The notes under the pieces: model-generated
The model's input: the letters and a program-made list of their open reading frames with translations, nothing else
What the model was told of the DNA's origin: nothing
Database searches by the model: none
Origin: Klebsiella phage Sugarland
Direction: 5' to 3' (one strand)
DNA: 64,000 bases
Sequence record: NC_042093.1
Shown: positions 1-11,328 of the stretch, piece after piece
Numbering within the stretch: the stretch's first letter is position 1
Layout of the letters: each line of letters begins with the position of its first letter
Made by a program: the position numbers and the translations under genes

Positions 1-93
1 GCTTAGAGGGTCGGGGGGTGGTATGGTAGTCCGATTACCCCCCTAGCTAACTATTAGTACCCTAACTATTTCGCTAGGGTACTATTAACTTTC

Positions 94-810
94 TTATGAT
101 GCGATGGCTAACGATTGAATGAATTGTTGCGGCTTAATTCCGTAGTCGCTTCTTTCTTCTTCGGTCATACCTTCCCAGCAATGAGCTAAACGCTCGCAAA
201 GATATTGATAATCATTATCATCATCCAGCGCTTCATCTATGAATGACTCACCCGCAAGGCGCACACCAATAGATAGAATGTCATTGATTGCGGTAGCGTC
301 CATCGTTTGAAGGCCAGCAGCAGCAGCAGCAGCCAACACGCCTTTATTATCGTCAATCATAGTGATAGTAGCGTTCGGATATTCAGCTTTAAGCATTTCA
401 AAATAATGCGTTTTATAGATACCGTCTTTTGCATAGTACACCTCTTTGTAATCAGCATCGCCAATATATCGGTGCAATACATCGCGGGATAGTATCTGGA
501 TATTACCACCGCGCCCCGCCCTGATACGTTGTTTCCGTAGGAAATAGTAATCGCTTTTGCTCATATAACGAGCGGTAACAACGATGTTTAATACAGTGGG
601 ATCATTAAGTGATGCCCGCATATATTCAACCAGCGGTAAAAGAGTGTCGGTCATAATTGCATCATGAACGCAAGCCTTTTCCCGGTACATGTTTAAATCT
701 AAGTTACCTTTCTCATCCATACACGGGAACACACGGGCAAAGGAATTAATAACAGTCCCGTCTAAATCCCATAACTTAATTGCCTTAATTGCCAGTTTAT
801 TAAAAGCCAT
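94..810 (-). CDS. dmp: 5'-deoxyribonucleotidase, HAD-family phosphatase (T5 dmp-like)
   Basis: N-terminal DxDGT motif (LWDLDGTV) typical of HAD hydrolases; position at the genome left end ahead of A1 as in T5. Confidence 0.7.
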   Translation of the reverse strand: MAFNKLAIKAIKLWDLDGTVINSFARVFPCMDEKGNLDLNMYREKACVHDAIMTDTLLPLVEYMRASLNDPTVLNIVVTARYMSKSDYYFLRKQRIRAGRGGNIQILSRDVLHRYIGDADYKEVYYAKDGIYKTHYFEMLKAEYPNATITMIDDNKGVLAAAAAAGLQTMDATAINDILSIGVRLAGESFIDEALDDDNDYQYLCERLAHCWEGMTEEERSDYGIKPQQFIQSLAIAS

Positions 811-879
811 TTTTCATTTCTCCGGTTTCGGGGTTGTTGGTAATCAAGCGAGCTATATTATAACTCGCTTTGTTAATTA

Positions 880-1332
880 TCAGAAGAATAAAGTTAAGGC
901 ATCGGCTAATTCAGCCGGTTTAATCCGGGTAGCCATTACCGGGACAATTGCGAGGGGCGGGGTATATTCGCTAGAAGAATAATCCATTACATCGCCTAAC
1001 AGATAAGTATCATCATAATCATTTTCGCTTACGACGATAAACATAAGGCCAGCGGCGGCGGCGTCAATCTCTACGATCTCGTAAATATCAGCTTCATAGA
1101 GAATAGAATCAGCGGCGACTAATTGCGACACAATGCCGGATTCTTTAAAATCAGCGGGGCGCGGGAGGATAGCGGCTAGAGCTTTTAAAACGGTGTCGCC
1201 GTCCACCGTGTTAACTTTCTGGTAGCTAACATGCGGGCGCCCTTCGCTATCGCGGGAAATAACAAGGCTATTTTCTACGACGTTGGACGCGGTGAAAGAT
1301 TTACGATTGTTATAGATGAAAGTAAGTTTCAT
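880..1332 (-). CDS. hypothetical pre-early protein
   Basis: 150-aa ORF with SD GGAGAAACAA upstream of ATG; same orientation as neighbours. Confidence 0.5.
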   Translation of the reverse strand: MKLTFIYNNRKSFTASNVVENSLVISRDSEGRPHVSYQKVNTVDGDTVLKALAAILPRPADFKESGIVSQLVAADSILYEADIYEIVEIDAAAAGLMFIVVSENDYDDTYLLGDVMDYSSSEYTPPLAIVPVMATRIKPAELADALTLFF

Positions 1333-1395
1333 TTGTTTCTCCAGCTTATTTATTTATGGGTTATTTATTGCCGGGGCAATTGCCCCGGCTTTTTG

Positions 1396-3078
1396 TTATG
1401 CAAAGAAAGCGCCGTCTTTAAAGTCAATCAAGGTACGTTGACCGTTTTCATAGGTGATTAGATGAGTCTGTGACCAGCTAGACGCGCCAATGTTGTAACC
1501 CATATCGAGGGAACCAGCGACGCCAGCAGTATAAACGCCGCCGTAAATGCTAGGCGTATGCGTATGGCCAGTGTTCATCTTACCGAGCTTGCGGAATCCT
1601 TTTGGATTGCCACGAGCGCCGTTAATGCCGTTGTGACCGTGGGAACCGCATTCAATGCCCGCGATTTTCATCGATTCATCCGTGGTTAGGAAGATCGCAG
1701 CAAAATCGCAGCCAGCAACATTGCGCAGGGCGTAATCTAGTACGTTAAAAGTATCGTCTTTATTTTCGATTGCCTCATAAATCGCAGCATTCAGGCGATA
1801 ATAAAGATGGCCGTTCGCCGGGTCTTGTTGAATGTTAGCTTTGCTATCATCCAGCCAGCGAGAAAGCGCCAGATCGTGATTAGACTCAACGATGACCGTT
1901 TGACTAAATTCACGTTCCATTTGCTCCAATACGCGCCCGGTATCGATCAGGTCGTCAATTACCTTGTCACGTCCGGCGGCATATTGTTTCGCAAGGAAAA
2001 CGCCACTAGCGCGGTTGTGATGGTTGCGCGACGTGAAATCATGCACATCATGCACAATCTGGTAACGAGGGCGCAGGATATCTACTAGCGCGGTTCCGCT
2101 AGGGTTATATTCCCAGCTTGCCGCCGCGACAGCGTGATCCAGCTTTTCGGCGTGAATGTCACCATATTGCAGCGCGGCAACATGCCCGGTTACTTCTTCG
2201 CCACCGTTAACAGTAAATTTATGATTAAGATCGTAAAACATCCCGCTTTCGTCCATCGTTTCAAGCTGGCGAGCAAAGAAGTTGCCGTTGTCGTCGATCT
2301 CTACCAGCAAAGCGCCGTAATTATGCAGCGCTTCGGCTTTTTGGCCCGCTTTTTGCTGAATATAATTTTTCAGCGTCGCTGTGCCAGTTGAATACATACG
2401 GCGCACAATGTCGCCCTTCATTGCCGGGACACTTTCAGCGGTGATTTTAGCGTGACCAATAGCCAGCCCTTTCAGGCCGTAGGCGGTCGCAGTCTCGCCA
2501 AAGCCGGACAGCGGAAAATCAGCAGTAGGCAGAATGTTAATTTCCGCCATGAATGCGAATCCTGTTTCACGGCTGCCCAAAAACACGTTTTCATTACAAA
2601 TGAAATCTGAGAAAGCATCATCATATTTCAGATCATCGTTGCCTTGCCCATTCTGGAAGCCTTTTTTGTTGTAGGCATATTTGCTAACCAGCAGGGTTGC
2701 GCCGAGGTATTTCGCGGCCTCCTGTAAGGTTTTCCAGAAGTTAGCATGAGGGAAGGTATTATTCTGAATCGACGTTAACAGAAAACGCTTACCCGGAATT
2801 ACCTTCCAGCTTTCGACGCTGGAATTAAGCTGACCAGCGGCAACGGGGCGGGAATCTTCCACCGCAACACGTTGAGCACGCTTTTCGGCAGCAGGTTTAA
2901 CAGGCTTGTTACTATCCAGCCAATCACAAATTTCGCTGGAATGTTTCGCCGTCCCGTAATGCTCTTTGCTCAATTCGTCGCAGATCTCCAGCTTTTTAGC
3001 GCGCAGACGTTTACCCCAAAAATTGAGGTTAGTTGCAGCGGTTAAAATAGCTTTTTGTTTCTCAATTGCAATGATCAT
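1396..3078 (-). CDS. A1: A1 pre-early protein with calcineurin-like metallophosphoesterase motifs
   Basis: 560 aa; motifs GDIHAE, ESNHD, GSHGHNG and NTGHTHTP resemble the D-x-H/GD/GNHD/GH/GHxH phosphoesterase signature; SD CTGGAGAA; size and position match T5 A1. Confidence 0.75.
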   Translation of the reverse strand: MIIAIEKQKAILTAATNLNFWGKRLRAKKLEICDELSKEHYGTAKHSSEICDWLDSNKPVKPAAEKRAQRVAVEDSRPVAAGQLNSSVESWKVIPGKRFLLTSIQNNTFPHANFWKTLQEAAKYLGATLLVSKYAYNKKGFQNGQGNDDLKYDDAFSDFICNENVFLGSRETGFAFMAEINILPTADFPLSGFGETATAYGLKGLAIGHAKITAESVPAMKGDIVRRMYSTGTATLKNYIQQKAGQKAEALHNYGALLVEIDDNGNFFARQLETMDESGMFYDLNHKFTVNGGEEVTGHVAALQYGDIHAEKLDHAVAAASWEYNPSGTALVDILRPRYQIVHDVHDFTSRNHHNRASGVFLAKQYAAGRDKVIDDLIDTGRVLEQMEREFSQTVIVESNHDLALSRWLDDSKANIQQDPANGHLYYRLNAAIYEAIENKDDTFNVLDYALRNVAGCDFAAIFLTTDESMKIAGIECGSHGHNGINGARGNPKGFRKLGKMNTGHTHTPSIYGGVYTAGVAGSLDMGYNIGASSWSQTHLITYENGQRTLIDFKDGAFFA

Positions 3079-3161
3079 TATTTAAATTCTCCAGTTAATG
3101 GGATATAGGCAAAATTGCCAAATATAACGCCGTGTTGCTAGTGGCGTTATAATTTGCGACT

Positions 3162-3389
3162 TTAAACTATTGCGGGAATAATACTAGCTGATATTCCAAA
3201 AGCTACGGCTAGAATAATAAAGATTATTGACCAGCGGCGGCAAATATTCGCTTTCTTAAACCAGAAATCACGGCGGAATAAATCCATTTGTTCACTGCCT
3301 ATTTCCATGAAATTATAGTATCCATAGAGACAAGCGGCGGCGAAAAAGCCAGCGATAAGAATTAAGGATTCAGTAGGGAAAAAGATCAT
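3162..3389 (-). CDS. small membrane protein (2 TM)
   Basis: 75 aa with two hydrophobic stretches; ATGA overlap with upstream ORF. Confidence 0.45.
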   Translation of the reverse strand: MIFFPTESLILIAGFFAAACLYGYYNFMEIGSEQMDLFRRDFWFKKANICRRWSIIFIILAVAFGISASIIPAIV

Positions 3390-3655
3390 TTTACAACCTC
3401 CTTTTCTTCTACGCTGAAAGCGTAATTAAGAAGGTAAATTTCGCGGGAAGATAATTCCAACATTTCCGGCTTAAATACTTCGCGGTTAATAGCCATCCCG
3501 AAAGTATCCGCGTCAGGGTTAACCCACAAAACAATATATTCAGGTACTTTGACGCTGGGAGGCGTCATTACGGCGGCATCTTGATAACCCGTTTGGATTA
3601 ATTCATCCACAACAGTTCCCGTTAATTTAATAACGGCACCTTTAATCAAAGCCAT
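3386..3655 (-). CDS. hypothetical protein
   Basis: 89-aa ORF with SD AACTGGAGAAATAAA-ATG. Confidence 0.5.
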   Translation of the reverse strand: MALIKGAVIKLTGTVVDELIQTGYQDAAVMTPPSVKVPEYIVLWVNPDADTFGMAINREVFKPEMLELSSREIYLLNYAFSVEEKEVVK

Positions 3656-3721
3656 TTTATTTCTCCAGTTATGGGGGACAAAATATTTAATTATGCGCCC
3701 CGCTAGGGAGGCGCATTATAA

Positions 3722-4126
3722 TTATTCTGCCGACTCTTTTACTTCATCCTGAACGCCAACCATACGGGCGATAACGTCCAGTTGGTCGAGCTTCATTTGT
3801 TCCAAACTTGCCAGGCCGTCGGCATCTTCGATCAGGCCGTCGGCAATAGCGTGCTGAGTGAGAACGCGCACATAGTGAGCTTTACGCAGGGAGGAACCGC
3901 CGCCGACTTTGCGCGGCTTATCGGACTTCTGATAAACCTTTGCGCTAACCAGTTTAGAACGCACTTTAACATGCGATTCAGCACCGACAGCCTTTGCAAT
4001 ATCGATAAGACCTTGCGAGTTAGCCACCTCCAGACCTTCGGCAGCAATAATACCTTCATACATAGAAATCGCAGTTGCGGCGTTTGTTTCGTTCCATGCA
4101 AATTTTTCGGTTTTAGTAGCAGTCAT
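3722..4126 (-). CDS. A2: A2-like pre-early protein
   Basis: 134 aa, basic central region, SD AACTGGAGAT; position downstream of A1 as in T5. Confidence 0.5.
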   Translation of the reverse strand: MTATKTEKFAWNETNAATAISMYEGIIAAEGLEVANSQGLIDIAKAVGAESHVKVRSKLVSAKVYQKSDKPRKVGGGSSLRKAHYVRVLTQHAIADGLIEDADGLASLEQMKLDQLDVIARMVGVQDEVKESAE

Positions 4127-4464
4127 GATATATCTCCAGTTTTATTTAAGGGGTTAGGCCAGAAAGTTAGCCGCTATATATTCTAGCTAGAATATATAAC
4201 GAAAACTCTTTATTTTAGTTTTCAATTTAAAGCTATTTAAAGCGGCATTGTATATATACGCTGCCTTTAATAATTACGCTATTACGTCTATTTCACGCTA
4301 TAGATTCGTGTTAACTCACGATTGCCGTTCAAAGCATGATATAAGTTCCAGCACATAAGTTTAATTTGCGCACCATAACATAGCTTGCGCTGCATGGGAT
4401 ATACATCGGAAGTCTAACATAGGGGAAGCATCCCATTATTTACCGGGGTTAAACTTATTGGCTA

Positions 4465-4725
4465 TTAAGCGACAGCCAACCATTTATCATCTTTGCGAAT
4501 GACTTTCACCACGTCGCCGGAATCTACCCGGACGCTGTAAATCCTCGCGTCGCTGTTTTTTGCTTTTTCCGTTTCGGCGTAAACCGCATTAATTTTATCA
4601 AATGGGATCATCGCCGCCCCTTTGATATATCCGATTTTTTCATTTTCGCCCGGCTTACTTACGTCGCCAGTAACGAAAGGAATAAAAACGGAATCACCGA
4701 TCATTGGGGTTTTAACGTTTTGCAT
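4465..4725 (-). CDS. hypothetical protein
   Basis: 86 aa, SD AACTGGAGTAAG. Confidence 0.5.
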   Translation of the reverse strand: MQNVKTPMIGDSVFIPFVTGDVSKPGENEKIGYIKGAAMIPFDKINAVYAETEKAKNSDARIYSVRVDSGDVVKVIRKDDKWLAVA

Positions 4726-4891
4726 GTTTCTTACTCCAGTTTAGTTTATTGGGTTATCCGGTTAACACTCTGATATTTTAGAGTGTTAACAGAAAACTCA
4801 ATTACCCTTACTGAGAGAATCGACTTTTCCAAATTTTTAAAGAGCGGTGTTGCTTATTGAGATTCTATAATAAAGCGTTATCGGCAGATTG

Positions 4892-5080
4892 TCAAACGTT
4901 ATTTTGTAAAGATTTTAGATAACGCATCATGTTATCCCAAATCATCGGCAAGCCTTGCTGGCCTCCGCGCTGGTAAGAACGGTAACGCCGCGCCATATCG
5001 CGCTGCATTTTGACCAATTCCGAGCTTGCCATTTTGTTCAATTTTGCTGCCGGTTTAGATGATATTACAAAGCGTTTCAT
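4892..5080 (-). CDS. small basic hypothetical protein
   Basis: 62-aa ORF. Confidence 0.35.
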   Translation of the reverse strand: MKRFVISSKPAAKLNKMASSELVKMQRDMARRYRSYQRGGQQGLPMIWDNMMRYLKSLQNNV

Positions 5081-5095
5081 GTTGTCAACCTTTAA

Positions 5096-5263
5096 TTAGT
5101 GGAGTGTATGATTTCGTTTAGTTTGCATAATGATTTGACCGTCTCTATGGATGAAGGCTAAATCTACGTCGTACACTTCTTTATAAGTCTTAATGAAGTA
5201 TTCAGCGTCTGCTACTGTGAACTCGTTTACAATCTCGCTACTCATTACGTTTTCTTTTAACAT
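5096..5263 (-). CDS. small hypothetical protein (55 aa)
   Basis: ORF MLKENVMSSEIVNEF... below the 60-aa track cutoff. Confidence 0.25.
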   Translation of the reverse strand: MLKENVMSSEIVNEFTVADAEYFIKTYKEVYDVDLAFIHRDGQIIMQTKRNHTLH

Positions 5264-5690
5264 GTTTTCGGTTCCCTTATAAAGTAAAGAAGCCGATAAC
5301 GCTTTTTATAGAATCCCAAATTTTTAAAGAGCAGTGTAGGGCGGGGGCAGACTATACTTGTTTCGGCCTTTCCGTTCGGGGTAGTCGGGGCTATGTTACC
5401 GCCTCCTGATACCTGACTACTAGTGAAACGCTTTCGTGTTTCCCGTTTCGTCTTGCCGCCCTACGAGATAAATAATAACACAATGACGTTTAGCCGCAAG
5501 CGCAGAATTGTAAAGAAGTGTAAAGAGAAAACAGGCCCACGATAGATAGGAAGCGCGCGCGCACGTGACACAATATTTAAAGAAAGTCAACGAATATTTT
5601 TACTATTTTTCTTCAAAAGGGGTTGACAAAATCTATTTCACACGAGGTGAGGAGATCGCCTCATACCCGGTATGATTCATCGGCTTTTAT

Positions 5691-5720
5691 CTAAAACCGC
5701 TTAGAATCGATTCTAAGCGG
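5691..5720. repeat. 30-bp perfect palindrome AAACCGCTTAGAATC/GATTCTAAGCGGTTT
   Basis: read directly; flanked by T/A runs; bidirectional terminator-like or protein-binding site. Confidence 0.6.
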
Positions 5721-5859
5721 TTTTAGACCCTGTTAATAACTTATACAAAAAGCAAAAATGAAATTTAATTAGTTATCCACTAGACAAATGATTATTTTTA
5801 TGAAAACGCAAAATAATGCTTGCGTTTATTTTATGCTGTACTCCTGTTTTCCGGGCAAG

Positions 5860-5868
5860 TTATCCACA
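5860..5868 (+). promoter_or_regulatory. DnaA box TTATCCACA (exact consensus)
   Basis: exact 9-mer. Confidence 0.6.
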
Positions 5869-5920
5869 GCACAAAATAACTTGACAAGCTGAGAAGCGGT
5901 ATAACGAGATATCCCCAGAC

Positions 5921-5956
5921 TTATCCACAGGTTATCCTACTGTATATTTATACAGT
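5921..5956. repeat. left arm of long-range inverted repeat carrying DnaA box TTATCCACA plus GTTATCCTA and an 18-bp palindrome ACTGTATATTTATACAGT
   Basis: reverse complement matches 9872-9919 apart from a 10-bp insertion. Confidence 0.65.
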
Positions 5957-6069
5957 ATATTCCAGCAGCGGTAATACTCTAATATACCCCTAGAACGCTC
6001 TATAACGCATTCTGAGCGCTTTAAATTTAGAGGCCATATTAAAGGCCATTGCTAGAGGGGCGCAGAAAA

Positions 6070-6110
6070 ACAAAAAGCCCGCTCATTATAAGCAGGCTTT
6101 TAATTCGTTT
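6070..6110 (-). terminator. intrinsic terminator (minus strand)
   Basis: on the minus strand, stem AGCCTGCT/AGCGGGCT followed by TTTTTGTTTTTCTG; downstream of gene 6116..6358. Confidence 0.5.
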
Positions 6111-6115
6111 GCTAA

Positions 6116-6358
6116 CTATTCCGTATAGGTAATGTTATCATGGTCAGTAAATGAAAACGGCGTTTCATCCGTACTCCATTCATCCCATAATTTAGCAGAC
6201 TCATGATTTCGCAGTTTAGCAATAGCAGGCATAATACTAGCTTGCTCATTATTAACAATAGGCGCGGCTAACTTTGCATACTCCTCCGGGGTTAATTCCA
6301 CCTCATAGGTGAGATTAGTAACCCTTTGCGTACTAACTAATACACGTATCTTTTCCAT
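6116..6358 (-). CDS. hypothetical protein
   Basis: 80-aa ORF. Confidence 0.45.
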   Translation of the reverse strand: MEKIRVLVSTQRVTNLTYEVELTPEEYAKLAAPIVNNEQASIMPAIAKLRNHESAKLWDEWSTDETPFSFTDHDNITYTE

Positions 6359-6705
6359 TATCGGAATACCGTTTCAATTGTTTCGCCGCTAGAGCATACC
6401 GACCCGCCGCGATAAAACAGGCGTTCGGTTTTATATTTGGTTAGCAGATCATAGAGATCCAGATCATCGGAAAGCGGGTAAGACTCCCCCAGCGCGGAAA
6501 CGGAAACAGGTTTACCCTCTACCAGATCACGGCAAATTAGAATCAGCAAAGGCCAACTAATATTGATAGCATCGCCTCGCAATCCGATTTTAAGTGTAGC
6601 CACTTCATCAATATGCCTTGCATTCTGGCGGCTAACATATTGGATCACGGTCTCCATCGTTTTATAGTGAGCCAGAAAATATTTGTTGACATAGATGTAA
6701 ATCAT
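6358..6705 (-). CDS. hypothetical protein
   Basis: 115-aa ORF, start overlaps upstream stop. Confidence 0.45.
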   Translation of the reverse strand: MIYIYVNKYFLAHYKTMETVIQYVSRQNARHIDEVATLKIGLRGDAINISWPLLILICRDLVEGKPVSVSALGESYPLSDDLDLYDLLTKYKTERLFYRGGSVCSSGETIETVFR

Positions 6706-7238
6706 AGGTATACGACCCCGCTAACCTTCCAACCGGATTTTAAACCTTCCTCAATATGAAGGATAGTTTCAGCATCCGGGATATAGATAAACGTTTTCAA
6801 TTCGCGCAGATTAATAACTGCCTTTCCGTCAGCTATCTGGATGTAACCCAAATAGATTGCCCGCTCTAGAACGGAATGAAGGGGCGAACCACCATTAACG
6901 AGGTTGCAGGAATGACCGGGCCAGTACATATAAAACGACCCTTCTACCCCAGCATTACAGTATTTTTCGTCGTCGTCTTCTTCCCAATCATCCTCGCCTA
7001 ACATACTTTCGGCATGTTCGCAAGCCTTTTCCCAGGAAAGGGAATCGACGTCAATTCCACGACCTAAAAAATGAAGGTCAGTCCAGCCAGTACCGCAAAC
7101 GTTAGTATCACATTTGAGGACGGCGGCGACTTCCTGAGACTCAATTCGCCCGCCCTCTAAATATAAACCTTCTTCCGCTTCTACCGTACAATTAATGCCC
7201 GGTACGCAAGATTTCATATGAAACATGGTTTTCTCCAA
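6702..7238 (-). CDS. hypothetical Cys-rich protein
   Basis: 178 aa, SD GGAGAAAACC. Confidence 0.5.
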   Translation of the reverse strand: MEKTMFHMKSCVPGINCTVEAEEGLYLEGGRIESQEVAAVLKCDTNVCGTGWTDLHFLGRGIDVDSLSWEKACEHAESMLGEDDWEEDDDEKYCNAGVEGSFYMYWPGHSCNLVNGGSPLHSVLERAIYLGYIQIADGKAVINLRELKTFIYIPDAETILHIEEGLKSGWKVSGVVYL

Positions 7239-7279
7239 TAATGGGGGCGGCTAGAGATTCAGCCGCCGGGAAGGGGATT

Positions 7280-7774
7280 TTACAGCTTATCGCGGAAAGT
7301 ATCAAGCCGGTTGTTTAGCTCTTTAATCGCGTCGGCATGGATTTCGTCATACGTTGACACGATATCCGCCAGCTCATCCATAGTTAGCGAACTAACAATA
7401 ACGGACGTTTTCACCTCCAGCTTTTCCGGTTCCGGTTCCGCTGGTGGCGTATCCAAAAACGTTAGCGAGCCTAAATTAATTAGGAATACTTCGATTTCGG
7501 TAGCGCCGGATTCGCAGTCTATTTCAAAACTGCTATCCCCAATACAGATATCAAAGCCATAGCCATATACCCCGATAATCCGCAAGGGGATTCCCAGCAT
7601 ATCGTCGGTGTCCGGGTAGCAGTCCCGGCGGTCAATCTGGCGGGCCAGATTATCCAAGTTTTTTGGCTCGATGAAAATAGCAAAATTGCCACGATCACCA
7701 TTCTGGCGCAGGCGCTGCCATACATTAGCGATCGTCATCTTTTCGCCTTCGAAAGTAGCGGTTAGCCGTTCCAT
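7280..7774 (-). CDS. hypothetical acidic protein
   Basis: 164 aa, SD AACTGGAGAATGTT. Confidence 0.5.
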   Translation of the reverse strand: MERLTATFEGEKMTIANVWQRLRQNGDRGNFAIFIEPKNLDNLARQIDRRDCYPDTDDMLGIPLRIIGVYGYGFDICIGDSSFEIDCESGATEIEVFLINLGSLTFLDTPPAEPEPEKLEVKTSVIVSSLTMDELADIVSTYDEIHADAIKELNNRLDTFRDKL

Positions 7775-7839
7775 AACATTCTCCAGTTAGTTAGCAGGGT
7801 AATTATTATAGCGCCCCATTATAGAGGCGCTAAATATAA

Positions 7840-8805
7840 TTATTCTGCTACGTCGTTTTCAATCAGGCTAGAAAGATTGACGCCTTTTAATACCTCGTCA
7901 ATCATTTCGCCGACGTTGAAACTTTGTACCAGTTCCAACATGGCGGCTTGCATTGCAGCGTCAGCCGCAATCACCGCTTTGCGGTTGTTCGGCGCATACT
8001 GGCTAACCGCAAAATTCAGCAGGTTAGCAATTACCACACGGCCTACCGCCGTGTCAACATAACCGCGAACCATAAACGGCGCTTTGCTGGCGGCGATGCC
8101 GGAAACTTTTTTCAGGACGATAGAACCAGCTTCCAGTTTAGCGGCGTTTACAGCAGCGTTTTTGTTAGCGGCAACGATAGCGGTAGCAGTAGATTTGATA
8201 GTATTCATTTGTAAAACTCCAGATTCAAAAGTGTTAGGGGTAACTGCATTTTCAGTAACAGCCGGGGCAACATCTTCCAGCTCGCCATCATAACGATAAT
8301 TTCCAGTCCTTGCCCCTTCTTCGATATCAATATCGTAGAAGTTACATGGTAACAGGATACTCCCGTCCTTGTCAAGCACAAAAATCATCATTTCGCTAGA
8401 AATGCGTGCTGGTGGTAGTTCCAGATGATCACAAAGATTTTTAATCCATGCGCGGGCATCAGTGAAAGCGAGCAGTTCGCTTTCATGGTAGCAAAAACGT
8501 CTCGACGCTTGCTTACCCTCGGACGCTTTATACAAATAAGCGTCCGAAGTAGTAGACACTATCAGATCAATAGGCTGGCTGTCAACCAAATATTGATCAT
8601 CGTGATAAATAACAATCGCCGCTCCGGGGGTGGCTAGAGCGTAGTCACGGCAATGCTCAAAGGCATAGCCGGATCTACTTTCCATATTTGCGCGATAAAC
8701 GGCCAAAATATGACCAATAGAGGCGCACTTACTGCCATCTAACAGGTTGCGAGCGCCACCGCGAACCATCGGCAAATTAGCAACGGGGGTAAACTTCTGT
8801 AACAT
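7840..8805 (-). CDS. hypothetical protein
   Basis: 321 aa; SD AAGGAG; preceded by PN25-like promoter. Confidence 0.55.
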   Translation of the reverse strand: MLQKFTPVANLPMVRGGARNLLDGSKCASIGHILAVYRANMESRSGYAFEHCRDYALATPGAAIVIYHDDQYLVDSQPIDLIVSTTSDAYLYKASEGKQASRRFCYHESELLAFTDARAWIKNLCDHLELPPARISSEMMIFVLDKDGSILLPCNFYDIDIEEGARTGNYRYDGELEDVAPAVTENAVTPNTFESGVLQMNTIKSTATAIVAANKNAAVNAAKLEAGSIVLKKVSGIAASKAPFMVRGYVDTAVGRVVIANLLNFAVSQYAPNNRKAVIAADAAMQAAMLELVQSFNVGEMIDEVLKGVNLSSLIENDVAE

Positions 8806-8837
8806 TTTCTGTTACTCCTTTGTTTGGCTGAGAATCT

Positions 8838-8867
8838 ATTATAGCAAGATTCCCAGCTTTTTAGCAA
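8838..8867 (-). promoter_or_regulatory. sigma70 promoter TTGCTA-18-TATAAT with TATAATAGATTC downstream context
   Basis: hexamers read on the minus strand; T5 early-promoter architecture. Confidence 0.55.
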
Positions 8868-8877
8868 GTATTATTTT

Positions 8878-9216
8878 CTAGAAACAGATGCCACGGCCCC
8901 GGCCTACCTCATCCCGATTTTCATCGAAAATGATCACATTGGCATCAAACGTGCTACGGCTAACGATCATTTGAATGCCATCCTTCCCCGGTTCTGGTTC
9001 CACCATAAATCCCCATGTACCGGAATCGACTGTTACAGAATCAAAATCCTGATTCCGTAACAATGCCGTAACAGTTCCCTCTTTTGCAAAGGTTACAGAA
9101 ACACGGCACTCAATAGGCCGAACCTTTTCAGGGGTAACGATAGCCGGGGCGCTAACCTCCGCAAGGGCAGCACCGGAAAGCATAGCAAGGCCAAAGCCAA
9201 TAACGGCAAGTTTCAT
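8878..9216 (-). CDS. secreted/periplasmic small protein
   Basis: start chosen at MKLAVIGFGLAMLSGAALA (signal peptide) with SD CTGGAGAATGTT; track ORF extends 15 codons upstream. Confidence 0.45.
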   Translation of the reverse strand: MKLAVIGFGLAMLSGAALAEVSAPAIVTPEKVRPIECRVSVTFAKEGTVTALLRNQDFDSVTVDSGTWGFMVEPEPGKDGIQMIVSRSTFDANVIIFDENRDEVGRGRGICF

Positions 9217-9303
9217 AACATTCTCCAGTTTTAGGGGTTGTTCCCGTTTGAGAGATTGCATTATGCAGGAATCAGATCTGACTGTCTACCACTAAAAATA
9301 GTA

Positions 9304-9331
9304 GTTGCTTCCTGCTAGAGTTATGGTATTA
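9304..9331 (+). promoter_or_regulatory. candidate sigma70 promoter TTGCTT-16-TATTAT
   Basis: upstream of three-peptide operon. Confidence 0.35.
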
Positions 9332-9360
9332 TTATGACTCTAGACAAAGGAGATCGAAAA

Positions 9361-9474
9361 ATGACTTTTTCAATGTTGGCGCTCGGTTTAGTCGGTTCTA
9401 TGATGGTTTTGGGCTTTATCGCTTTTTGCGGGTATGCCCTTTATGACGTATTATTTAATAAGGAGGCTTTTTAA
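9361..9474 (+). CDS. tiny hydrophobic peptide 1 (37 aa)
   Basis: SD AAAGGAGATCG; MTFSMLALGLVGSMMVLGFIAFCGYALYDV...; TAATG coupling to next ORF. Confidence 0.4.
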   Translation: MTFSMLALGLVGSMMVLGFIAFCGYALYDVLFNKEAF

Positions 9475-9638
9475 TGAGAACTTTGCGCGGTGGTAGCCCC
9501 AAAAGCCGTAGCCACAATACTTACCAATTGAACGTTATTCGTGATGGTCAGAAGAAAGGCGGTGGCGGCGGTGAGTGGGGTTTTCGTGTCATCATGGTTA
9601 TTATTATGACCCTAATCTTTTTGCAGAGTTGCCAATAA
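9474..9638 (+). CDS. tiny peptide 2 (54 aa), basic N-terminus, Gly-run and C-terminal TM
   Basis: SD AAGGAGG; TAATG overlaps on both sides. Confidence 0.4.
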   Translation: MRTLRGGSPKSRSHNTYQLNVIRDGQKKGGGGGEWGFRVIMVIIMTLIFLQSCQ

Positions 9639-9748
9639 TGAGCGGCCTAATGTTTTTGGGCGTGATAGTTATTAGCGCAATCATTACCCTGGTAATAGTT
9701 TCAGTTGTAAACCATTTTTGGCCTGAGTGTTTCCACGGCGATATGTAG
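9638..9748 (+). CDS. tiny hydrophobic peptide 3 (36 aa)
   Basis: MSGLMFLGVIVISAIITLVIVSVVNHFW...; translationally coupled. Confidence 0.35.
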   Translation: MSGLMFLGVIVISAIITLVIVSVVNHFWPECFHGDM

Positions 9749-9871
9749 GAATGTCGCCGCCCTCCTCCACCGCGTGACCCCTTACTAAAATACCTCCACG
9801 AAAATTAAATCGCTTAGAACGCTTCCTAGACCCCTTAAAATCGACATTAGTAGAAAGTGTTGCTGGGAAAT

Positions 9872-9919
9872 ACTGTATAAATATACAGTAGGATAACCTG
9901 TTAATAAGTCTGTGGATAA
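9872..9919. repeat. right arm of inverted repeat with DnaA box TGTGGATAA and palindrome ACTGTATAAATATACAGT
   Basis: mirror of 5921-5956; further DnaA-like GGGGATAAC at 9973. Confidence 0.65.
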
Positions 9920-10012
9920 CTCGTCTGCGACCTTCTCAAGCGTCAATCTAATTTACAATTTTGTATAACTCTGGGGATAACTTAAATGGTAGTGTTTCTC
10001 ACTTCCTTTTAG

Positions 10013-10108
10013 AAATGCGAATCATTCTCATTCGCATTCAGCTTATCAAACGAGAATAATTATCATTCGCATTCAACTTCTCAAATGCGAATCATTCTCA
10101 TTCGTATT
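10013..10108. repeat. three copies of hairpin repeat AATGCGAATCATTCTCATTCGCATT (9-bp arms, 7-nt loop)
   Basis: copies at about 10013, 10052 (partial) and 10083. Confidence 0.6.
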
Positions 10109-10140
10109 TGCATTTCCGACCCCCGGCCCTTCCTGCGCTT

Positions 10141-10710
10141 ATGTGCGAATCCGACAATTTGTCAAGCAAAATATTACGTGAGGCTGCTAGGGTATGTGCA
10201 AATCCGATGAAAATTTATTTTTACCGCCCTGGGGGCATGTGCAAATCCGACACTAATATGTGCGTATCCGACAATAATTTTTAGGGGGAAGGCGCGCAGT
10301 TTGCTGCGGCGCAGCGGTGGGCGCGAGTCTGGGTGAGTATGTGCAAATCCGACGGGTATTTTTGGAGGAGGGATAAACGGGGTTAATTGGGGCAATTCGG
10401 GGATGATGGGGGCAGGGGGCAGATAAGGGAAAATATTATGAGTTAAATGGGGGTAAAGGGGTTGACACAGAAAAAATTCCTGTGGCTCTAAAAAACAAGC
10501 GAACTCACGGTGACACACCGTGTAAAAAGGCTTGAAATTTCAGGAGATATTTTATATTCGCAGAATCGAAGATTTTGATCCACAGCTACCGTTTGCTAGT
10601 ATATATGTGCATATCCGATAGTAGTTTTTATATGTGCATATCCGATAGTAGTTTTTATATGTGCATATCCGACATAGCTAGAGGTTAGTGCAAATCCGAT
10701 GATATTTTGT
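10141..10710. repeat. array of about 10 direct repeats with core ATGTGC(A/G)(A/T)ATCCGA(C/T)
   Basis: copies at 10141, 10195, 10238, 10258, 10339, 10604, 10631, 10658 and 10688; variable spacers; no credible ORF. Confidence 0.65.
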
Positions 10711-10714
10711 GACG

Positions 10715-10870
10715 CTTAGAACTTAGGCGAATGACGTGAGTTTGTGTGGGAACTTCGTGAGGACTTTGTGGAGTGACGCTTAGGACTTGGGAAGCTAGCG
10801 TTTTAATATGGGGATGTGTGAGGACTTCGTGGAATATGTGAAATGGCGTGGAACTTTGTGCAATTCTAGA
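10715..10870. repeat. degenerate direct repeats GACGCTTAG(A/G)ACTT and GGAACTTCGTGAGGACTTTGTGGAG
   Basis: 2-3 copies each, read directly. Confidence 0.5.
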
Positions 10871-11244
10871 AAAAGGCTTTCCGAAAAAGTGAGTTGGAAA
10901 ATAACCGCCCTCCCCTTAGGTGTATGGAAAGAACCGCCCTGTATAGAAAGATGACTAGAGTTCAACCCTAGAGCCGCGAAACGATGGTGTGTAAGGATTA
11001 CCTACTTTTAAACGTGAGTAATCGTGAGTTCATTCCCACGTTTCCTTTGTTTTCTTTATTGTGTCTTTTATTTTAGTTATAGATCCCCCTATTTCTCCCG
11101 ATGTAGCCGTGCTAGGCATCGCAGATTGTATCGTATGGCTGGTCACTCTTTGTACTCGCTTCGGAACTCCGCGCTACTAAAGTTAGCCATGATAATCTGT
11201 GCCTAGCTACATAAATTTATGAATTGTATGTAATCTATGAGATT

Positions 11245-11274
11245 ATTATAACACGGGCATAAAATAACTGTCAA
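11245..11274 (-). promoter_or_regulatory. near-consensus sigma70 promoter TTGACA-18-TATAAT pointing leftward into the ORF-free repeat region
   Basis: minus strand TTGACAGTTATTTTATGCCCGTGTTATAAT. Confidence 0.5.
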
Positions 11275-11290
11275 GAACATTTTGTAAGAG

Positions 11291-11328
11291 TTTGAAAAAG
11301 TGACAGGGACTTGGCGAGAGTCCCTGTG
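11291..11328 (-). terminator. intrinsic terminator
   Basis: minus strand ACAGGGACTCTCGCCAAGTCCCTGT then CACTTTTTC. Confidence 0.55.

Follow-up and report, generated by a model that had tools for sequence, protein, structure and literature searches.

The genome of the Klebsiella phage Sugarland carries, within its left terminal repeat, a cassette of three tiny, overlapping open reading frames (ORF1, ORF2 and ORF3) that are protein-coding genes under purifying selection. We examined this cassette in a stretch of 64,000 nucleotides (nt) from sequence record NC_042093.1 (the "window"), position 1 of which is the left end of the phage genome. Judging from the comparison of its sequence with those of its relatives, it is very likely that the three ORFs are real, translated genes for pre-early membrane mini-proteins. 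The fuller statement that we favor, namely that they constitute a rightward pre-early operon for accessory peptides of host takeover at the inner membrane, is one that we hold with less assurance and regard as reasonably, though not strongly, probable.

The cassette occupies positions 9361-9748 of the plus strand and consists of ORF1 (9361-9474; 37 amino acids, MTFSMLALGLVGSMMVLGFIAFCGYALYDVLFNKEAF), ORF2 (9474-9638; 54 amino acids, MRTLRGGSPKSRSHNTYQLNVIRDGQKKGGGGGEWGFRVIMVIIMTLIFLQSCQ) and ORF3 (9638-9748; 36 amino acids, MSGLMFLGVIVISAIITLVIVSVVNHFWPECFHGDM). These are exactly the three plus-strand ORFs that had been described in an initial annotation of this DNA, and the TAATG coupling reported there is found at both the ORF1/ORF2 and ORF2/ORF3 junctions, each with a 1-nt overlap of stop and start codons. 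A coupled chain of three ATG-initiated ORFs of at least 30 amino acids each was obtained in 0 of 3000 dinucleotide-preserving shuffles of positions 9300-9760, and chance is excluded as an explanation of the arrangement. The minus strand opposite the cassette contains no ORF of more than 28 amino acids in the ORF listing. The canonical Shine-Dalgarno sequence that had been attributed to each gene exists for ORF1 (AAGGAG at 9347-9352, plus strand, 8 nt upstream of the ATG and kept in relatives) and for ORF2 (AAGGAGG at 9460-9466, plus strand, inside the final codons of ORF1 and likewise kept), but not for ORF3, which is preceded by GCAGAG only and must therefore depend for its translation on coupling to ORF2.

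The evidence that these ORFs are genes comes from the locus as it occurs in 18 relatives with annotated records and in a number of metagenomic contigs, in each of which we traced the ORF chain; the locus of phage KPN4 was left out, as it has a rearranged or collapsed junction and retains only the 3' end of ORF3. The ratio of nonsynonymous to synonymous differences per site (pN/pS), derived from Nei-Gojobori counts over distinct sequences, is 0.14 for ORF1 in its own frame and 1.7 in the other two frames, 0.11 for ORF2 (1.4-3.0 in the other two) and, among the Klebsiella phages, 0.26 for ORF3 (1.2-2.7 in the other two). The synonymous bias among relatives that the initial annotation had singled out for checking is thus plainly present in all three. 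Variable sites are distributed over the first, second and third codon positions as 8/4/20 in ORF1 (17 distinct sequences, p = 7e-4), 7/8/34 in ORF2 (p = 3e-7) and 5/4/10 in ORF3, or 20/16/64 for the three ORFs pooled (p = 3.6e-10). Over a greater distance, ORF3 and its homologue in the Salmonella phage GSW6 share 67% of their amino acids, with a pS of 0.78, which is near saturation, and a pN of 0.21; variants of ORF2 that are 54-60 amino acids long and only 36-48% identical retain the tryptophan as well as the motif at the N-terminus and the helix at the C-terminus that are described below. In-frame insertions and deletions in the glycine run of ORF2 were considered as further evidence for coding and discounted, because the repeat unit there is itself 3 nt long.

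Upstream of the cassette we recognize a putative rightward pre-early promoter at 9292-9332 of the plus strand, read from the sequence as an A-tract (CTAAAAATAG), a -35 element, a spacer and an extended -10 element. The conserved parts are, in order, ACTAAAAATAG, TTGCTT (9305-9310), a 16-nt spacer and the extended -10 sequence TGgTATTAT (9324-9332, with the -10 hexamer at 9327-9332). The element is kept in 18 of the 18 aligned relatives, even where the adjacent leftward gene has been replaced or is absent, as would be expected of the sigma70 promoter proposed in the initial annotation; it is atypical of that class, however, in that its -35 hexamer matches the consensus at only 3 of 6 positions, and it was for this reason not listed by a consensus scan. 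A weak -35 element becomes tolerable in the presence of an extended -10. From these positions we infer a start of transcription near 9339-9341. The same consensus scan lists a leftward promoter, TAGACA-17-CATAAT at 9288-9260, which stands back to back with that of the cassette. A 7-bp inverted repeat around the -10 element (CTAGAGT/ACTCTAG) was entertained as an operator and dropped, since it is not kept in the relatives. The sequence around the -10 element of this promoter (TATTATTATGACTCTA, 9327-9342) also belongs to a 16-nt near-repeat pair, the other copy of which (TATTATTATGACCCTA, 9599-9614) lies in the codons for the membrane helix of ORF2, ~25 nt upstream of ORF3; this second copy could act as a weak internal promoter or could have arisen by chance.

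At the other end of the cassette, a hairpin (GGCGAUAUG-UAGGAA-UGUCGCC, 9736-9759, plus strand) covers the stop codon of ORF3, with a folding energy of -14.6 kcal/mol and a z-score of -1.65. It is not followed by a U-tract and hence is not a canonical intrinsic terminator, and a terminator scan found none on the plus strand. Canonical terminators exist at the equivalent spot in phage GSW6 and in the Enterobacter phage KKP_3711.

The position of the cassette in the genome is what connects it to the pre-early period of infection. Sugarland is the source phage of the window and belongs to the genus Sugarlandvirus of the Demerecviridae; its T5-like character, which the initial annotation had presupposed, is confirmed. 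Homologues of three T5 genes lie on the minus strand, as in T5, namely dmp (94-810), A1 (1396-3078; "DNA transfer protein" in PHROGs) and A2 (3722-4126). The cassette region is ~100% identical to that of two other phages of Klebsiella, Spivey and Torridgeon; its identity to those of ~70 further Sugarlandvirus genomes is 90-95%, and it has no match in the plasmid collection that we searched. In phage IME260 the terminal repeat (1-10257) has the same sequence at either end of the genome and aligns collinearly with positions ~49 to ~10490 of the window, which places the end of the terminal repeat of the window near 10490; for phage KpGranit, PhageTerm predicts a terminal repeat of 1-10100. Since both of these repeats span the cassette, the cassette is part of the DNA that is transferred into the cell in the first step of infection. 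It has on its left the pre-early genes that are transcribed leftward (dmp, A1 and A2) and on its right a set of repeats of the injection-stop-signal type, which begin ~150-160 nt beyond ORF3.

These repeats, which form the downstream boundary of the cassette, occupy 9911-10709 and are assigned to no strand. They comprise DnaA boxes at 9911-9919 and 9972-9980 (minus strand, from the sequence) and two sets of repeats, one of three 35-nt units with AATGCGAAT...ATTCGCATT palindromes (10013-10117) and one of eight ATGTGCRWATCCGA units (10132-10709), a layout that fits the injection stop signal, or Repeat Region 3, of T5. Inverted partners of the DnaA boxes (TTATCCACA) were read from the sequence on the plus strand at 5860-5868 and 5921-5929, in a repeat area at 5773-5929; together, the repeats at 5773-5929 and 9911-10709 have the architecture of Repeat Regions 2 and 3 of T5-like phages. 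In T5, genes T5.011-017 occupy the interval from Repeat Region 2 to the stop signal and are transcribed rightward, in opposition to dmp, A1 and A2. This block between the repeats is the most variable coding part of the terminal repeat in T5-like phages, and T5 and the Sugarland/IME260 type share no DNA homology in it.

By its position the cassette corresponds to T5.011-017 and would be the rightward pre-early unit of this phage, cut down to three tiny genes. The initial annotation had drawn attention to a plus-strand operon in a region otherwise transcribed leftward. The large genes that flank the cassette are indeed all on the minus strand, but there is no anomaly in this; a rightward pre-early unit normally sits to the left of the stop signal, so that an island of plus-strand genes is to be expected here and the switch of strand is explained.

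The peptides themselves agree with their earlier description as mostly hydrophobic, one of them with a basic, glycine-rich N-terminus: each has one hydrophobic segment that is long enough to span a membrane, and the N-terminus in question is that of ORF2, which is basic (net charge +6), has 8 lysine or arginine residues among residues 1-38 and contains GGGGG at 29-33. ORF2 begins with the motif RxLRGGSPKSRxHxxY, in which R5, G6, G7, S8, K10, S11, R12, H14 and Y17 are invariant in the alignment of the family; a variable basic and glycine-containing linker follows, then a conserved tryptophan (W35) and the hydrophobic C-terminus. AlphaFold2, given the family alignment, predicts a helix at residues 33-53, with mean confidence values (predicted local distance difference test, pLDDT) of ~78-95 over blocks of 10 residues. 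The model fits a tail-anchored peptide that would display a flexible short linear motif in the cytoplasm.

By tblastn against the phage collection, ORF2 occurs in 76 phage records, in 65 of them at near full length. It matches phrog_26718 from end to end (E = 5.4e-41, residues 1-54 on profile positions 1-56 of 56), and a diverged variant of 59 amino acids matches it too (E = 2e-9); this family carries no annotation, and membership in it says nothing about function. The family is an extremely narrow one: 46 clusters belong to it in a set of 5.8 billion proteins and 4 sequences in a set of 1.84 billion representatives, where an exhaustive hidden Markov model search with it brought up nothing beyond the family itself. 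A "nucleoside transporter" label is attached to ORF2 homologues in phages FZ41, VAC35 and Kpn02; we reject it, as there is no Pfam or NCBIfam match and a 54-amino-acid peptide with a single helix is not a multi-pass protein. The glycine run is encoded by a (GGY)5 triplet repeat at 9558-9572 of the plus strand that is hypervariable in length, ranging among the relatives from 2 to 8 glycine or aspartate codons. ORF2 is frameshifted at this tract in KpGranit and in three short metagenomic contigs, and such frameshifts could reflect either slippage-driven on/off variation or sequencing error.

ORF1 has one membrane-spanning segment, with no charged residue in positions 1-28, and a short C-terminal tail (DVLFNKEAF). 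All of its 76 matches in the phage collection (tblastn) are from Klebsiella phages and show at least 86% identity, and no counterpart outside of this group was found in that collection. Some records annotate a form of 46 amino acids that begins at the ATG at 9334. That codon lies between the -10 element and the inferred start of transcription, is lost in phages HS37 and Roth37 and is out of frame in KpGranit, JIPh_Kp127 and pzk-kv7; as far as the sequences can tell, the true ORF1 is the 37-amino-acid form that is served by the AAGGAG site.

ORF3 combines an N-terminal membrane-spanning segment with a conserved acidic and aromatic C-terminal tail, NH[FY]WPE..[HD].D, and it reaches beyond the Klebsiella phages. 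Among its matches in 70 phage records (tblastn, phage collection) is an annotated homologue of 36 amino acids in phage GSW6, an Epseptimavirus, that has the same NH[FY]WPE tail (E = 2e-6 for the database-wide tblastn match, 2e-19 pairwise), and an unannotated homologue of 37 amino acids in KKP_3711 (locus 2486-2599) has the NH[FY]WPE tail at 39% overall identity (pairwise E = 7e-10). In both GSW6 and KKP_3711 the ORF3 homologue is the final ORF ahead of the DnaA boxes. When the tail was searched for in IMG/VR as a degenerate DNA pattern, only the two terminal-repeat copies of IME260 matched.

The gene that precedes the ORF3 homologue in these two phages (45 amino acids in GSW6, 46 in KKP_3711) specifies a peptide with a basic N-terminus, a glycine run and a C-terminal helix. 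The terminal gene pair of some pre-early operons of the Markadamsvirinae is like the end of our cassette, with a true homologue of ORF3 (36 and 37 amino acids, respectively) preceded by a peptide that has the architecture and neighborhood of ORF2. The 45-amino-acid peptide occurs in 230 phage records, mostly of T5-like phages of Salmonella and E. coli. Its relationship to ORF2 is a weak local match confined to the part made up of GGG, tryptophan and helix, and the RGGSPKSR motif is absent from its family; a comparison of the two family profiles by hhalign gave a probability of only 10% over 12 aligned columns, and we therefore treat the 45-amino-acid peptide as an analogue of ORF2. In phage EscoHU1 another gene follows the 45-amino-acid peptide (locus 2201-2335), and adjacency to the stop signal is consequently not universal.

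Among closer relatives the site of the cassette is occupied by different combinations of at least six families of tiny membrane peptides, always chained by ATGA or TAATG overlaps. The families are A (ORF1), B (30 amino acids, MAPWAILETKW...), C (the ORF2 type, 51-63 amino acids), D (47 amino acids, MILTILFISLLCILPG...), E (the ORF3 type, 32-36 amino acids) and F (43 amino acids, MISQLIKTVRWWG...), and the arrangements found are A-C-E, as in the window, A-C-D-E, A-C-D, A-B-C'-E, A-B-C'-D, A-F-C-D and A-C''. None of the intact cassettes that we examined lacks family A or a gene of the C type. The cassette looks like an ordinary, swappable accessory module. Peptide F, which is from a metagenomic contig resembling Sugarlandvirus (locus 1870-2001), and a 40-amino-acid peptide of GSW6 (locus 1781-1903) are 47% identical over the first 17 residues, which suggests that tiny membrane genes may be swapped between the pre-early operons of different genera of the Demerecviridae.

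By analogy with T5, the most likely role of the cassette is an accessory one, in the takeover of the host at its inner membrane. The cassette and T5.011-T5.017 share the same slot in the left terminal repeat, the same rightward direction and the same end at the injection stop signal, and in both cases small membrane proteins are encoded on the DNA of the first transfer step. The T5 block includes gp013, a small, toxic membrane protein with two predicted helices, the expression of which causes lysis-like damage. T5 mutants that lack hegG-017, i.e. the whole rightward pre-early block, are viable and form smaller plaques. It is this precedent, together with the mosaic and lineage-restricted distribution of the cassette, that makes an accessory takeover function targeted to the membrane the best supported one. 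Because T5 lacking the rightward block is viable and the cassette is mosaic among close relatives, we also consider that the cassette is probably not part of an essential machinery of DNA transfer.

The following sequence of events can be envisaged for such a function. Host RNA polymerase would transcribe the cassette in the first minutes of infection, when only the terminal repeat is inside of the cell, and coupled translation would yield the three peptides in a roughly fixed proportion for insertion into the cytoplasmic membrane. ORF2 would be anchored there by its tail, with its basic N-terminal motif in the cytoplasm as a short linear motif that binds, at the membrane, a partner from the host (or a nucleic acid); the conserved NHFWPE-x-FHGD tail of ORF3 would be exposed on the opposite face of the membrane, and ORF1 would serve as the constant membrane partner. 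The peptides might then perturb or inhibit some function of the membrane or a host protein bound to it.

Several observations count against this proposal. The analogy with gp013 is drawn from size, hydrophobicity and position only. ORF1 and ORF3 have almost no positive charges, which leaves their topology weakly determined, and the N-terminal 30 residues of ORF2 are modeled at low confidence (pLDDT of 54-59). In KpGranit, ORF2 is frameshifted (locus 876-1019), so that at least one member of the cassette can be lost, unless the frameshift is a sequencing error. Searches of Pfam, NCBIfam, the PDB and the PHROGs with an assigned function did not match ORF1-3 to any characterized protein, BLASTP detected no homology between ORF1-3 and T5.002, 003, 005, 007-009, 012-014, 016 and 017, and our search of the literature found no paper on the ORF1-3 peptides or on pre-early expression in Sugarlandvirus.

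Differences from the T5 block and from other known systems should also be borne in mind. T5 gp013 (59 amino acids) has two helices, whereas the peptides of the window, at 36-54 amino acids, have a single helix each and are not homologous to it, with no BLASTP match to gp013 better than E = 1.4. The Sugarland homologue of T5.011, a DUF7566 protein, is encoded on the opposite strand, and the rightward unit is left with the three mini-genes. Peptides of 20-75 amino acids that have a single hydrophobic helix, are charged at one end and disturb the inner membrane are familiar from Hok, TisB, Ldr and MS2 L-type proteins. The type I toxins and MS2 L differ from the cassette in that there is no homology between them and their genomic context is another; Rfam yielded no RNA family match in 9100-11300, and a consensus scan of 9361-9748 found no promoter-like site on the minus strand. 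While the families of ORF1-3 are uncharacterized, the kind to which they belong, small early phage membrane proteins, is already known, and it is likely that the cassette stands for an accessory function and not for a new principle.

Among the alternatives to host takeover, the initial annotation had named superinfection exclusion and the control of an injection channel, whereby the peptides would close or modify the channel for the phage's own DNA while its transfer is paused, or block the entry of a second T5-like genome. We think this unlikely, although it is the best of the alternatives. Phage inner-membrane proteins that act on DNA entry are well known, examples being T4 Imm, HK97 gp15 and P22 SieA. 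The peptides of the cassette would be among the first made and would be embedded in the membrane, in three genera or lineages ORF3 or its homologue is the final gene ahead of the injection stop signal, and a rapid mosaic turnover would suit competition between phages; moreover, the first-step-transfer DNA of T5-like phages is credited with more functions than it has assigned genes. However, Imm, gp15 and SieA are larger than the peptides of the window and share no sequence similarity with them, and no Pfam, NCBIfam or PHROG match to superinfection-exclusion families (T4 Imm and others) was obtained at E ≤1. T5 without the whole rightward block still performs the two-step transfer and forms plaques, its known exclusion factor is reported to be the lipoprotein Llp, which acts on FhuA, and in EscoHU1 another gene is interposed between the 45-amino-acid peptide and the stop signal.

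It is slightly less likely still that the peptides neutralize membrane-associated abortive infection or other defenses of Klebsiella, with the modules of the cassette tracking the defense repertoire of the hosts. An accessory, mosaic and lineage-restricted distribution would be in keeping with this, as would an expression that precedes the entry of the bulk of the genome and an invariant short linear motif in ORF2 that suggests a specific protein partner. On the other hand, phages isolated on many capsule types and strains hardly differ in ORF1 and ORF2, which a conserved target fits better than an arms race would, and no similarity of the peptides to a known anti-defense protein was found, PADLOC and anti-defense libraries having been uninformative or not searched.

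The motif of ORF2 also invites a reading in terms of DNA, to which we assign a small probability taken as a whole: the cassette would handle DNA at the membrane during two-step transfer, with RGGSPKSR, which presumably resembles SPKK and RGG-like motifs, as a nucleic-acid hook tethered to the membrane. The hook might hold or shield the terminal-repeat DNA that has already entered, the stop signal being ~150-950 nt downstream of the cassette, or it might hold a host factor, while the tail of ORF3 would act at the site of entry from the periplasm; the outcome would be a modulation of the pause and restart of transfer or the exclusion of a second T5-like genome.

It is very unlikely that the transcript matters and the peptides do not, in the sense that transcription toward or through the region of the DnaA boxes would, for example, remodel or release DNA held at the membrane and the ORFs would be incidental or leader-like. 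The highly conserved promoter and the lack of a canonical terminator between ORF3 and the DnaA boxes in Sugarland would be explained in this way, but not the strong purifying selection on the amino acids of ORF1-3, nor the conservation of ORF3 across genera in spite of saturated synonymous sites, and the relatives in other genera have canonical terminators after the ORF3 homologue. Roles for the transcript and for the peptides are not mutually exclusive and could both hold. We can largely dismiss a function in lysis, as a holin, antiholin, spanin or single-gene lysis protein, even though ORF1-3 are small and membrane-spanning, the basic N-terminus and hydrophobic C-terminus of ORF2 recall MS2 L-type proteins and the 59-amino-acid ORF2 variant has a faint PHROG spanin match (E = 0.16), because that match is not significant, ORF1-3 have no Pfam or PHROG match to holin families, expression in the first minutes would be the wrong timing, and the cassette has pre-early genes around it in the terminal repeat, with no endolysin or spanin gene among its neighbors.

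The DNA of the first transfer step in T5-like phages amounts to a compact set of host-takeover genes that is naturally isolated in time, and several early functions of these phages, among them the injection pause, host shut-off and evasion of restriction and RecBCD, are without an assigned gene. In the T5-like phages of Klebsiella the rightward pre-early unit comes down to only three membrane mini-proteins maintained by selection, which makes it a small and clean experimental target, and its most interesting element is the invariant 16-residue motif of the putatively tail-anchored ORF2 family. The Sugarlandvirus phages are candidates for therapy of Klebsiella infections, and membrane-active peptides expressed early would bear on their host range and on the assessment of their safety.

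The annotation of the locus in public records can be corrected in several respects, in that ORF1 and ORF3 are absent from many records, the start of the 46-amino-acid ORF1 is most probably wrong and the "nucleoside transporter" assignment is unsupported. The initial annotation had placed all three ORFs below the usual annotation thresholds. This is true only in part: Torridgeon has all three annotated and ORF2 is included in phrog_26718; two of the three are annotated in K7PH164C4 and only ORF2 in Spivey. Among the mini-genes left without annotation in GenBank are, for Spivey, both ORF1 and ORF3, for KKP_3711 the homologue of ORF3 and for EscoHU1 the 45-amino-acid peptide.

The neighbors of the cassette are a putatively secreted protein of 127 amino acids to which no function is assigned, the DUF7566 protein and the stop region, which is non-coding. 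The first of these is encoded on the minus strand at 8878-9261, with a probable start at 9216 that would reduce it to 112 amino acids, and has an N-terminal segment resembling a signal peptide (MKLAVIGFGLAMLSGAALA). It is named "S9 family peptidase" in Spivey and FZ41, has no Pfam match and matches only phrog_24947, which is of unknown function. Some relatives have the gene, but it is absent or replaced in KpGranit, HS37, VAC51, JIPh_Kp127, pzk-kv7 and K32PH164C1, independently of the type of cassette. The DUF7566 gene ("37 kD pre-early protein") lies on the minus strand in Sugarlandvirus, at 7840-8805 of the window; its homologue T5.011 is toxic in T5, and the gene opens the rightward pre-early operon in T5, GSW6 and EscoHU1. 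Its strand relative to these three phages implies that the DUF7566 module has probably been inverted in Sugarlandvirus.

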